From a virus: a DNA stretch of 64,000 nt. The position numbers and the translations under genes are program-made. The notes beneath the pieces were generated by a model. It was not told the DNA's origin. It saw only the letters and a program-made list of their open reading frames with translations, and searched no databases. Position 1 is the first letter of the stretch, and each line of letters starts with the position of its first letter. This document shows positions 8,514 to 53,209 of this stretch, one piece after another. The DNA lies in the IMG/VR virus record IMGVR_UViG_3300045976_000117, positions 1 through 64,000 of that record, one strand, 5' to 3'.

Positions 8514-8590
8514 CCCTTTCGCTAGTTTCTTGTCTTGTATATCGGATCTAAGGTACAGGACGTTACATCTTGGAGGAGAGGCGATTATTC

Positions 8591-15505: not shown

Positions 15506-15596
15506 GGTGGGGCGGTCCCGATGGAGAGACAGCAGTTATCGCCTCCTATGCTCCGGGCGGTATCTGTGTACGTGGGTTCGATTCCCACCCCCACCT
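15506..15596 (+). ncRNA. tRNA-like RNA with elongated anticodon arm
   Basis: Acceptor GGTGGGG/CCCCACC, D arm GTC..GG..GAC, T arm GTGGG-TTCGATT-CCCAC; anticodon arm 4+7 bp with 12-nt loop. Confidence 0.7.
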
Positions 15597-15614
15597 CTTT
15601 GAGAGGTGTACTCA

Positions 15615-33545: not shown

Positions 33546-33574
33546 ACGGTACCTAAGTTCCTAGGCACTGTCAA
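33546..33574 (-). promoter_or_regulatory. Housekeeping-type promoter with operator B in spacer
   Basis: TTGACA-N17-TACCGT on minus strand. Confidence 0.75.
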
Positions 33575-35985: not shown

Positions 35986-36148
35986 TCTAGAGGTCCTCTC
36001 TATCGGTGGCTGGCATGAAAATACACACATTATCCCAGCCGCATATGGGACAAATACCGGCGATTACGAGCTCTGTTGGTCCTTCCCAGTTGCAATCTTG
36101 ACATACGGCATATTCCATCGTTCTCACTCCTCTTGTCTACTACATCGA

Positions 36149-36178
36149 ATCTTAGGTACTGGTCGTTACACCTGTCAA
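36149..36178 (-). promoter_or_regulatory. Promoter overlapped by operator B
   Basis: TTGACA-N18-TAAGAT. Confidence 0.7.
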
Positions 36179-40583: not shown

Positions 40584-41477
40584 TTAGTGACCTCCTCCGA
40601 CAATGACGGGAGACCCGGCCGGTACTGGCACGGCCTGAACTTTGCCATCCGCGATAGCTCGTGCTACGGCCAGTTGCATCTGGTAAGCCGTATAACCAGT
40701 AATGCCGCCAGGGAAGTTCGCTGCGGTGTTCTTATCAGTCTCTGCGGTGGTAGCCCTCAGTTGCGCGGCTTGGTTGTTCGCAAGTTCGGCCTTCAGTGCG
40801 TCATTGGGATCCGGTTTTTGAAGGACGATGCTGTCAATGATGAAGTAATCTTCACCGGTTTGCTCTTTAACGATTTTCGGAATCTCAGCTTTAGAGGCAT
40901 TCTCCCAGTTCCCTTTAGTCACCGGATCCGTAAACAACTGCGACCAGCCGAATCCAAGAGCGGCATTACTGACTCCACGTTCGGCCGGAGCTCGGAGGAA
41001 TTTGTCAAGTACCTGATCCCAACCCTGACCAGGCTCAGCCCCTCCTTCTGTGGCGTAGGCCACATATTGCATGCCGATAGTCTCATGGAATTTCTGTAAA
41101 ATACCGCCTGGCCAGTTCTTGCCAAAAGCATCAGTATATGACTGGCAACTCGCGTTGAGATGGAAAGTGATATTCGCGGGAACACTCATGATCTGACCTT
41201 CTTTTGAAGTGATCGTAAGTGCTTGAAAATCACCACCTGGACCGAAGGTCAGGGTACGTTGAGCTGTCGTCGCAGGATAATAGAAGTAATCATCATTGAT
41301 TTTGTGGTACTCGAGCCTGCTAGGCTGCACACAACCCATGTACACCCGATTACTGAACGGACCATTCTTGTAATGCAGACCCACCTGATTAGCCGCGGTG
41401 TCTGCGATGGAGCAGCCAGCAACCGCCAATGTCACAGGAATGGCAATAATTGCTGACCAGCGTTGCCACCGTTTCAC
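40584..41477 (-). CDS. SPFH/Band-7 domain lipoprotein
   Basis: Lipobox VAGC, VGLHY..GPF, QRT..F, SKEG....V, F.I..I.LQKP.P; GTG start after GAAAGGA. Confidence 0.75.
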   Translation of the reverse strand: MKRWQRWSAIIAIPVTLAVAGCSIADTAANQVGLHYKNGPFSNRVYMGCVQPSRLEYHKINDDYFYYPATTAQRTLTFGPGGDFQALTITSKEGQIMSVPANITFHLNASCQSYTDAFGKNWPGGILQKFHETIGMQYVAYATEGGAEPGQGWDQVLDKFLRAPAERGVSNAALGFGWSQLFTDPVTKGNWENASKAEIPKIVKEQTGEDYFIIDSIVLQKPDPNDALKAELANNQAAQLRATTAETDKNTAANFPGGITGYTAYQMQLAVARAIADGKVQAVPVPAGSPVIVGGGH

Positions 41478-41603
41478 ACAAATTCCTTTCCGAGTCGGAA
41501 TAGTGCGACGCATCTTATCATCTCCTCCAATTGAGGAAGAAACAGATCACCAGCCCTACGAGCACAGCGTAAGCCGTGCCGATAATTAAAAACTCTGCGA
41601 TAT

Positions 41604-41801: not shown

Positions 41802-42271
41802 CAGTTTATCGTTCCTGGTCTCCAGTTGGTACCGGTCACTGCGTCGAAAGTATTGGGCTCTTCCCAGTCTTCCAGGTATACAAGTTCTTCTTTTGTTTGT
41901 TCCCTGTCAGGGTTGTCTGTCTCATTTCTCCAAGGTCGTAGTCCCATTGTTAGTTTCCTCGCTTCTTGTATACCCAGTCCTGCCACATCTGCTCGCGGTC
42001 TGACCGTTGCTGGTCGCGCTCAGTCTGAGTGCTCGTGTCCTGCCGTTCGACTTGCTGACTGATATACTGCATGTGCCTGGTTTCCTTCCTACTCGGTTAC
42101 TAGGTGCCTCGGGTTGGTGTTTCTTAACGGGTTATGCCAGCCCGAGGCTTATTTTATTATGTGAAGTGTGTTAAACACTTCATCTCGCCATTCATCGATA
42201 TGATCTTCAGTATATTCTTTAGGGTCCGTCAAACTGTTCATGTAATCTCTGCACTCCTTTATTAGAAATTG

Positions 42272-42378
42272 GGGCCCGCGTCGGAGGCGCTGCTTACCTA
42301 CCCTGCCAGTTTCTTTTAATTCCGATACTGTGTGTTTACTCGCGCGGGCCCACTGTTTAGTTTAAGTTTGGGGTTTGG
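42272..42378 (-). ncRNA. Structured RNA element copy 1
   Basis: AC-rich leader plus GGGCCCGCG/CGCGGGCCC closing stem with conserved inner motifs. Confidence 0.55.
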
Positions 42379-42410
42379 TTGAGGTCGGACATTTATTTTC
42401 TTCAAAATTG

Positions 42411-42508
42411 GGGCCCGTGCGGGAGGCTGCGTGAACCCTGCCGCTACGCTCTTTTAGATTCCCTGATTTTCACACGGGCCCGCTGTTTAGTTTGGGTTTG
42501 GGGTTTGG
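42411..42508 (-). ncRNA. Structured RNA element copy 2
   Basis: AC-rich leader plus GGGCCCGTG/CACGGGCCC closing stem (compensatory change relative to copy 1). Confidence 0.55.
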
Positions 42509-42715
42509 TTACCGTAAGGGCAACAGCCATGGTTGCTGGTTGATAATCCACTCCTTGGTGGAGGTGTACATATCAGTGCTAGGCGAGTCGTACCAGGCAT
42601 CAAGAGCCTGTACGACTTGGCCACCCTCGCGGGTGTCCAGTAGACCGTAGACCTGAGACAAGTCCAGCAAGCAGGTAAACATAGCGCTGCGGTCTAGTCC
42701 GTTCTTAGCCTTCAT
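42509..42715 (-). CDS. Hypothetical protein
   Basis: GAGGAG RBS; first gene after promoter at 42779-42807. Confidence 0.65.
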   Translation of the reverse strand: MKAKNGLDRSAMFTCLLDLSQVYGLLDTREGGQVVQALDAWYDSPSTDMYTSTKEWIINQQPWLLPLR

Positions 42716-42778
42716 TTCTAGCTCCTCAGTTCTTGTGTTCCTGCTCTGTTGTCTAGTACATCGGATCTGATGTACTAG

Positions 42779-42807
42779 ACGTTACAGACAGAGGGATCAC
42801 CTGTCAA
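42779..42807 (-). promoter_or_regulatory. Leftward promoter flanked by operator A (42801-42816) and operator B (42756-42775)
   Basis: TTGACA-N17-TAACGT. Confidence 0.75.
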
Positions 42808-42841
42808 GCTGGACAGCTCAAGATTTTTAGTCCAGACAGCA

Positions 42842-42876
42842 AGAGACCGGTACCCCGCGTCTGGGCACCGGTCTCT
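42842..42876 (-). terminator. Hairpin terminator after lsr2
   Basis: AGAGACCGGT...ACCGGTCTCT inverted repeat. Confidence 0.6.
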
Positions 42877-42891
42877 GTGGAGAGTTTGACT

Positions 42892-43284
42892 CTAGGCCGC
42901 GGCAGCCTGCTTGGTCCTCAGGTGCTCGAGAATCTGCGGGTTTTGCGTTCGCCACGCGGTCACAGCGAGCTCCGGCAGGCGACCCCGCTGAGCCAGGCTG
43001 ACGCCATTGGCAGCCGCATACTCGCGTACCGCACTTCGCTCTTCCGGGGTCAGACCGGATCCAGTCGGCGCTGCCGTGGTGGACTTGGCCGGACGGCCAC
43101 GCTTGCCAGTACTGGCCTTGCGACCAGCCTCAACATATCGACCAAGGAAATTCCGAAGCTCGTCCTCCTCCGCAGGAGTCAAGTCGATCTCGTAAGTCAC
43201 CCCCGCAAGACCGAACTCCACATTGCGGGCATCGCCTTCGCCACTGAGATCACTGGCGATCTCTACAGTAACCTTCTGTGCCAT
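42892..43284 (-). CDS. lsr2: Lsr2 nucleoid-associated protein
   Basis: MAQKVTV...DL.G, V.FGL.GVTYEIDL, VRE.A..NG....RGR AT-hook. Confidence 0.93.
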   Translation of the reverse strand: MAQKVTVEIASDLSGEGDARNVEFGLAGVTYEIDLTPAEEDELRNFLGRYVEAGRKASTGKRGRPAKSTTAAPTGSGLTPEERSAVREYAAANGVSLAQRGRLPELAVTAWRTQNPQILEHLRTKQAAAA

Positions 43285-53135: not shown

Positions 53136-53209
53136 TGCGGGATAGCTCAGTCAGGTAGAGCGCCGGTTTCATACTCCGGTGGTCGGGAGTTCAAATCTCC
53201 CTCCCGCAA
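53136..53209 (+). tRNA. tRNA-Met (anticodon CAT; Ile2 not excluded)
   Basis: TGCGGGA/TCCCGCA acceptor, GCTC/GAGC D stem, CCGG/CCGG anticodon stem with TTCATAC loop, GGGAG-TTCAAAT-CTCCC T arm; no encoded CCA. Confidence 0.92.

Follow-up and report, generated by a model that had tools for sequence, protein, structure and literature searches.

To our knowledge, structured non-coding RNAs of actinophages are almost unexplored, and we know of neither a structure nor a function for the examples that RNA sequencing has revealed in L5 and D29. In enterobacteria, OmrA and OmrB are adjacent paralogous small RNAs, each of which has its own promoter and a canonical terminator and depends on Hfq. The early operon of phage T7 contains RNase III sites, which are two-part helices of about 20 bp with symmetric internal loops and leave stable 3' hairpins. 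For the actinophages L5, D29 and StarStuff, which are Cluster A mycobacteriophages, abundant, stable and processed non-coding RNAs of 100-500 nucleotides (nt) from the early promoter Pleft have been described, and the species of about 100-400 nt in L5 and D29 arise by processing of a longer transcript (PMC5712189). Here we analyzed a stretch of 64,000 nt (the window), which is the first 64 kb of the 74,298-bp IMG/VR virus record IMGVR_UViG_3300045976_000117 and in which an earlier note had described a tandem pair of covarying structured RNAs. The pair was borne out: copy A (42510-42404) and copy B (42380-42265) lie as an adjacent tandem pair on the minus strand, and the comparison of both copies with each other and with relatives from other soil metagenomes indicates that this structured RNA module, kept as an old tandem pair, is real, conserved and not catalogued before. 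With a rough probability of 0.85, we assume that the A-type and the B-type are two old paralogues of this uncatalogued module, that they would act as minus-strand RNA, and that they are transcribed as part of an operon comprising an open reading frame of 68 amino acids (aa; ORF68), copy A, copy B and small ORFs.

Both copies are built from a C/A-rich arm, a 9-bp GC-rich helix (P1) that encloses 53 nt in copy A and 62 nt in copy B, and a CAAUUU(U/C) tail (Table 1), and the repeat unit is about 130 nt long. The arm has 28-29 nt, which are almost all A or C with a single G and four AAAC words (AACC-AAAC-CCC-AAAC-YY-AAAC-U-AAAC-AG), and a shared sequence reads AACCAAACCCCAAACYYAAACTAAACAGY in both copies. 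The halves of P1 are GGGCCCGTG/CACGGGCCC in copy A (5' half also written GGGCCCGUG) and GGGCCCGCG/CGCGGGCCC in copy B, the inner stems are GGGA/TCCC and TCGGA/TCCGA, respectively, and TAAAAGA, GGCAGGGT and the tail CCCCAATTT are present in the copies. Nearly all of the stems, inner stems, conserved words, tail sequence and lengths (71 and 80 nt) that had been named before were found on the minus strand. Copies A and B are identical at eight of nine positions of P1 and throughout GGGCCCCAAUUU, and their interiors are much more diverged. This repeat is far beyond chance: the expectation for the 15-mer of the arm is 0.1 occurrences in 64 kb, and exactly two are present. A covariance model from both copies, which the earlier note had proposed, recovers the two sites, with E values of 1e-28 and 5e-26, and no others across the 74-kb record.

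RNAalifold together with a pair count showed that all 13 pairs of P1 and the inner helix P2 are kept in both copies. Two of them differ by double-sided changes, U-A/C-G in P1 and G-C/C-G in P2; taken alone, this compensation between two sequences has no statistical weight, since 118 of 500 shuffles reach the same. In the context of a 591-nt transcript the pair probability of P1 is at least 0.95. The folding z-scores of the whole elements are weak: the two copies score -1.3 and -1.0 on the minus strand, as against +1.4 and +0.2 for the plus strand. In the refined layout, a continuous 3' strand of 17-18 nt (P3-P2-P1) is predicted to pair with three 5' segments that are separated by two bulges. 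All bulges are located on the 5' strand, with the conserved GGAAU..UAAAAGA..GGCAG within them: J1/2 is type-specific and has 9-17 nt, and J2/3 has 22 nt with GGAAU(C)UAAAAGA and GGCAG. In copy A, position 42424 is common to P2 and P3 and only one of the two pairs forms.

Further compensation was found in relatives. Logan contigs of four other soil runs were placed on 42100-42900 at a likeness of at least 80%, and their matches are confined to the cores of the elements (87-97% identical) and to the promoter/operator region at 42735-42881, with unlike sequence on both sides. X10 matches copy A (58 of 60 positions identical over 42406-42465), X5 matches copy B at 62 of 71 positions, and X8 matches copy B with five differences and two gaps over 61 nt; the contigs concerned are 216 nt (X10 record 1), 2109 nt (X5 record 3) and 575 nt (X8 record 4) long. 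Neighbouring ORFs are unmatched at this threshold in the relatives' contigs, although ORF68 homologues exist at the amino-acid level with 66-84% aa identity (n = 10 in all, 60-84% aa identity, most of them ending in ...LLPLR*); therefore, the non-coding pieces are the best-conserved DNA of the locus. As X10 matches A only, and X5 and X8 match B only, we assume that the A/B duplication is older than the separation of these phage lineages and that both types have been kept.

The changes in the relatives concern both P1 and P3. In P1 of X8 one C-G pair is gone from both halves, with GGGCCCGCG/CGCGGGCCC becoming GGGCCGCG/CGCGGCC (3' half also written CGCGGCCU). P1 of X5 reads UGGUCGCG/CGCGGCCA, which gives a terminal U-A where X8 has G.U and a change of one C-G to U.G, and in X10 the 5' half GGGUCCGUG results in a G.U on the minus strand, or in an A-U if the partner has changed as well. 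P3 consists of A-U, G-C, G-C and U.G in copy B and of G-C, A-U, G-C and U.G in X8, so that two neighbouring pairs have each changed on both sides with the pairing kept, within a stretch of 30 nt that has nine differences overall. Homologues with further compensatory changes are present in related soil-phage contigs; none was found in cultured phages.

Wherever these helices depart from Watson-Crick pairing, the minus strand shows a G.U pair, for which the plus strand would have A.C. Together with the better-than-shuffle folding, which is restricted to the minus strand, and with the orientation of the locus, where the flanking genes and the promoter all lie on the same minus strand as the elements, these mismatches point to an RNA made from the minus strand and not to a DNA palindrome. 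A DNA-level element, such as a small mobile inverted repeat similar to miniature inverted-repeat transposable elements (MITE) or repetitive extragenic palindromes (REP), or a site for a protein or single-stranded DNA, with the two P1 halves as its inverted ends and an RNA fold that would be incidental, would agree with the X5 core, whose inverted ends sit between flanks unlike those of the window, and with the palindromic GGGCCC. We consider this very improbable, because G.U mismatches on one strand and a base-pair deletion compensated on both halves are expected from RNA pairing and not from protein-bound terminal repeats, and the internal helices covary too. Furthermore, the 74-kb record contains only two adjacent copies and the other collections none, and there are no flanking direct repeats, no target-site duplication and no transposase nearby, which led us to reject a MITE or REP, for which many dispersed copies would be expected. 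A restriction-site decoy was also rejected, with 26 GGGCCC sites in the window against about 23 expected.

A comparison of copy B and X8 revealed changes at 1 of 17 positions in J1/2, at about 3 of 22 in J2/3 and at 4 of 8 in the P3 stem. Fewer changes have accumulated in the bulges than in the paired 3' strand, which suggests a function for the unpaired nucleotides. Within the arm, A, B, X8 and X10 all have AAACUAAACAG, which X5 lacks. The X8 arm differs more from copy B of the window than copy A of the window does, which suggests a shared constraint on the ends or their homogenisation. The pseudoknot between a GGGU loop and ACCC in the leader, which the earlier note had considered, did not hold up in this comparison, as the B-type X8 reads GGCAGUGC as against GGCAGGGU and its arm contains neither ACCC nor any other complement.

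The conservation of the unpaired nucleotides also bears on the idea that the elements are passive punctuation of the mRNA, which means leaky terminators or processing and stabiliser hairpins that have no specific partner, of the kind known from the RNase III sites of T7 or from 5'/3' stabilisers. RNase E would cut the arm, and the P1-clamped body would shield the new ends from RNase J or PNPase. This would be in line with the intercistronic location within the operon of a phage, with a highly stable P1 between an upstream single-stranded C/A arm and a short U-run, and with a 3' strand that forms one nearly continuous stack of 17-18 bp; two similar copies per operon also recall the RNase III sites in the early region of T7. 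However, the unpaired bulges and the arm are the most conserved parts and not the stems, which a stabiliser would not need, and conservation across phages extends to each of the two distinct interiors, A-type and B-type. The ordinary terminator-type hairpins of this phage are simple (42842-42876, 42106-42148). In addition, an intrinsic terminator, which is a compact GC-rich hairpin with a loop of 3-8 nt followed at once by at least five U in eight bases, was rejected for either copy: the terminator scan calls neither A nor B, the helix encloses 53 or 62 nt, and only four of eight bases are U in the tails (CAAUUUUG, CAAUUUCU). Taken together, we regard passive punctuation as a close rival, but an unlikely one.

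The statement that the elements belong to no recognised family stands. Rfam 15 at the gathering threshold matched the whole window only with a tRNA at 53136, and with E values up to 10 the region 42100-42700 gave four chance-level matches, none of them on the minus strand over the elements; a match to a terminator or repeat family was looked for as well and not found. Blastn searches of cultured phages with the whole region and with each core returned nothing, or chance matches of 25-30 nt inside unrelated genes. Plasmids contained no match to the elements, GTDB genome contigs none by protein or DNA pattern, and a scan of IMG/VR for the arm pattern none. The IMG/VR records found by stem and tail (L002, L003) or by arm and stem (L005-L008) were judged to be chance matches, because the covariance model fails all six and they have no proteins in common with the phage. 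Two of these, the near-identical contigs L006 (3520-3600) and L008 (7715-7795), show a stop codon, CAAAACTAAACAG and a simple 11-bp GC hairpin; this arm-and-stem layout has no core and was rejected as coincidence.

Several further candidates were tried and rejected. A tRNA- or tmRNA-like fold was not called by ARAGORN at the default or the 80% threshold, and at 60% only noise on the opposite strand appeared. Coding is contradicted by 1-nt indels in the X8 core, and a 54-aa frame on the plus strand has no homologue. The repeats of type III toxin-antitoxin systems (ToxI-like) have units of 34-45 nt as compared with about 130 nt here, and Pfam, NCBIfam and PADLOC revealed no ToxN/AbiQ-type gene among the downstream ORFs of 30-65 aa. 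Programmed frameshifting on the CCCAAAC words was discarded, since the words follow the ORF68 stop and no extended frame exists.

Concerning transcription, the earlier note had placed the elements under a consensus promoter. TTGACA-N17-TAACGT is indeed present and conserved; both hexamers are kept in the relatives' contigs, and the spacer is variable at 42789-42797 (X8 record 5, X14 record 2). A strict consensus scan did not call this promoter, because its -10 matches TATAAT at only three of six positions. It is located about 90 nt upstream of ORF68, about 300 nt upstream of copy A and about 430 nt upstream of copy B. ORF68 would be transcribed first, and the elements are therefore operon-internal and intercistronic and not directly under the promoter. 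The intergenic region between the Lsr2 gene and ORF68 (42735-42881) comprises a terminator-like hairpin (42842-42876), the -35, the -10 and a palindrome, and it is 92-95% conserved in contigs of two other soil runs, with differences clustering in the spacer and with unmatched flanking genes. Palindromes of the form GTAYMT-N8-AKGTAC occur at four sites in the window (8537-8556, 33549-33568, 36140-36159 and 42756-42775) against 0.25 expected. The one at 42756 abuts the -10 of the promoter that probably drives ORF68 and the RNA elements, and it is kept in relatives, also on a separate contig (X8 record 6). The alignments show a conserved, compensated RNA fold, as predicted for the putatively transcribed strand, inside what appears to be an operator-controlled operon.

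Table 1. Features of the element pair and its surroundings (positions in the window)
Feature	Position	Strand	Remarks
Copy A, single-stranded C/A-rich arm	42482..42510	-	four AAAC, one G in 28 nt
Copy A, body (71 nt)	42411..42481	-	P1 42481-42473 with 42419-42411
Copy A, P2	42463-42460 with 42424-42421	-	GGGA with UCCC
Copy A, P3	42438-42435 with 42427-42424	-	GGGU with GCCU, 7-nt loop
Copy A, tail	42404..42410	-	CAAUUUU; CAAUUCU in relative X10
Copy B, single-stranded C/A-rich arm	42352..42380	-	26/28 identical to copy A arm
Copy B, body (80 nt)	42272..42351	-	P1 42351-42343 with 42280-42272
Copy B, P2	42325-42321 with 42285-42281	-	UCGG(A) with (U)CCGA
Copy B, P3	42299-42296 with 42288-42285	-	AGGU with GCCU, 7-nt loop
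Copy B, tail	42265..42271	-	CAAUUUC; AAAGGAG next, then ATG at 42241
Sigma-70-type promoter	42779..42807	-	TTGACA 42807-42802, 17-nt spacer, TAACGT 42784-42779
Operator-like palindrome (15+15 bp)	42751..42780	.	just downstream of -10; family GTAYMT-N8-AKGTAC
ORF68 (68 aa)	42509..42715	-	predicted three-helix protein; stop TAA 42511-42509 overlaps first bases of copy A
30-aa ORF	42149..42241	-	directly downstream of copy B; ATG at 42241, strong ribosome-binding site AAAGGAG
Simple 12-bp hairpin	42106..42148	-	after 30-aa ORF; ordinary terminator or stabiliser type
Possible 11-codon mini-ORF	42357..42392	-	MSDLNQTPNLN* in A-B spacer; speculative; weak ribosome-binding site GAAGA
Lsr2 gene	42892-43284	-	
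Band-7/SPFH gene	40584-41513	-	

Both element copies are housed in a minus-strand gap of 270 nt between ORF68 and a 30-aa ORF. ORF68 was modelled by AlphaFold2 with a predicted local distance difference test score (pLDDT) of 81; a fold search with this model gave no informative match, and no match was found in Pfam, PHROG, PADLOC or NCBIfam. A role of ORF68 as RNA-binding protein was not supported by the fold search or by Atlas. Scans of Pfam, NCBIfam and PADLOC gave no family match for the 30-aa ORF and none for the ORFs of 30-65 aa downstream of the elements, and scans of Pfam, PHROG, PADLOC and NCBIfam revealed no defence, toxin or RNA-binding family adjoining the elements. The stop of the possible mini-ORF in the A-B spacer is 5 nt before P1 of copy B, and a terminating ribosome would overlap P1. 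The hairpin at 42106-42148 is followed on the plus strand by a T-rich run and was called terminator-like there; it also gave a chance-level match to Alpha_RBS (E 0.11).

This operon layout is one argument for a cis-acting intercistronic regulator, riboswitch-like or protein-bound, which we consider a close rival, if a somewhat unlikely one. Each module would be an aptamer or an operator in which a ligand or a phage or host protein, with ORF68 as a candidate, closes the P1 clamp and thereby controls read-through, the access of Rho to the C-rich arm or how the following cistron is translated, and with two copies in tandem the response would be sharper. The start of copy A coincides with the ORF68 stop, copy B finishes 13 nt ahead of AAAGGAG and the ATG at 42241, and the A-type copy of X10 likewise precedes a purine-rich tract and an AUG. 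Aptamers typically have conserved unpaired junctions within a closing helix that covaries, the arm with 11-12 C against 1-2 G resembles a Rho loading site, and the operator of the operon is shared with three other sites. On the other hand, no expression platform is recognisable: in the folding analysis no alternative pairing stands out that would hide the ribosome-binding site or make a compact terminator. Rfam gave no riboswitch or leader match, even with E values up to 10, and the predicted fold of ORF68 gives no hint of RNA binding. A search of metagenome contigs of the Joint Genome Institute (JGI) by ORF68 alignment returned only a distant, GC-rich relative (L004), in which the next ORF directly follows the ORF68 homologue with no element between them.

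Our tentative preference, which we hold at somewhat short of even odds, is that the elements are tandem paralogous small RNAs that are released from the operon transcript and act in trans. Cleavage within the unstructured arms, partial termination at the short U-runs that follow P1, or a combination of the two would release two nuclease-resistant RNAs of about 105-115 nt from the transcript. The P1-clamped body would provide stability, and the arm and the bulges might serve as recognition surfaces for a host or phage mRNA or protein. The processed RNAs of L5, D29 and StarStuff would be an actinophage precedent for this, and like ends around a divergent middle recall pairs such as OmrA and OmrB. 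The protein sponge or anti-defence decoy suggested in the earlier note would be a special case of this reading. In a scan of the window alone, complementarity to the arm was limited to two 13-mers with two mismatches, which is near chance.

Some points weigh against this preference. Neither copy has its own promoter, as judged from a consensus scan and from reading of the sequence, and the U-runs are short, with 3-4 U after CAA; for these two reasons, the release as discrete RNAs is something that we infer. The strong ribosome-binding site and the ORF directly after copy B fit a role in cis equally well. X5 keeps the core and P1 and has neither the C/A arm nor the CAAUUU tail, which weakens the arm as a universal business end and makes the core the minimal conserved unit. 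The inner fold is thermodynamically fragile and differs between the copies, with a probability of 0.03 for P3 in A and of 0.01 for P2 in B. Finally, the changes in the relatives were read by hand from difference tables and 30-nt loose ends, and the relatives are represented by fragments only.

A related possibility, which we regard as decidedly unlikely, is a new class of phage RNA device: a tandem pair of P1-clamped, nuclease-blocking folds would be released from the operon transcript, and the stable small RNAs formed in this way would use the conserved C/A arm and the purine-rich bulges to titrate or guide a factor of the host. Such a factor might be an RNA-binding protein, a defence nuclease or G-rich ribosome-binding sites, and the A-type and B-type interiors would provide two specificities. 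In its function, this kind of nuclease block would be similar to the duplicated exoribonuclease-resistant RNAs of flaviviruses, but it would be aimed at the actinobacterial RNase J/E.

The record that carries the elements has an estimated completeness of 78%, and the GC content of the window is about 53%. The nearest cultured kin of its Band-7/SPFH protein are found in Rhodococcus, Corynebacterium and Mycobacterium phages with less than 30% aa identity. Together with the Lsr2 gene, this marks the source as an uncultured actinophage. The phage DNA is carried by soil and rhizosphere metagenome runs, and among the 20 sequencing runs listed with this DNA there is no RNA run. A search of IMG/VR for relatives using ORF68, Lsr2, the Band-7 protein and a TraB-like ATPase returned none. 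As separate observations from the window, the use of hexamer palindromes is uneven (CCCGGG 0, GCCGGC 2, GCGCGC 5 and CCGCGG 89, with a mononucleotide expectation of about 23 each), which could reflect restriction-site avoidance or a repeated word. ARAGORN called a tRNA-Asp of 92 nt with the anticodon ATC at 15506-15597, where the Rfam tRNA model stays below its threshold; this tRNA is doubtful or unusual.

Across soil metagenomes of several studies, this compact element (71-80 nt) shows stronger nucleotide-level conservation than the neighbouring genes. Its compensated stems and conserved unpaired nucleotides would mark a specific interface between RNA and a ligand, a protein or another RNA. 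The small size suits direct biochemistry, and the defined promoter/operator makes a function readily testable. If the elements are a regulator or a decoy, they would be a new RNA family for the phage-host biology in Actinobacteria.

The closest known systems resemble the pair in some aspects and differ in others. The elements share with an intrinsic terminator a GC-rich stem with U residues after it where a cistron ends, but the stem encloses 53-62 nt compared with a loop of 3-8 nt, and CAA lies between the stem and only 3-4 U. With the RNase III sites of T7 they share the presence of several related irregular hairpins with internal loops between phage cistrons; unlike these sites, the elements have large bulges (9-22 nt) on the 5' side only and a conserved sequence. 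OmrA and OmrB show the same design of near-identical single-stranded 5' regions and a 3' stem and tail around a divergent middle, whereas the elements have no promoters of their own, weak U-runs and no homology to them. As far as we know, Hfq is generally considered to be absent from the host phylum, and we know of no Hfq and CsrA systems in Actinobacteria of the kind that explain many such RNAs elsewhere. The RNAs of L5, D29 and StarStuff have no sequence similarity to the elements, and their expression has been shown, whereas the pair described here is known from its sequence. Furthermore, the L5/D29 RNA begins at the promoter itself, without an intervening ORF, and has not been described as a tandem covarying pair. 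In common with the elements, however, the RNAs of these three phages are non-coding, have no known function and are located in an actinophage downstream of a repressor-controlled early-type promoter.

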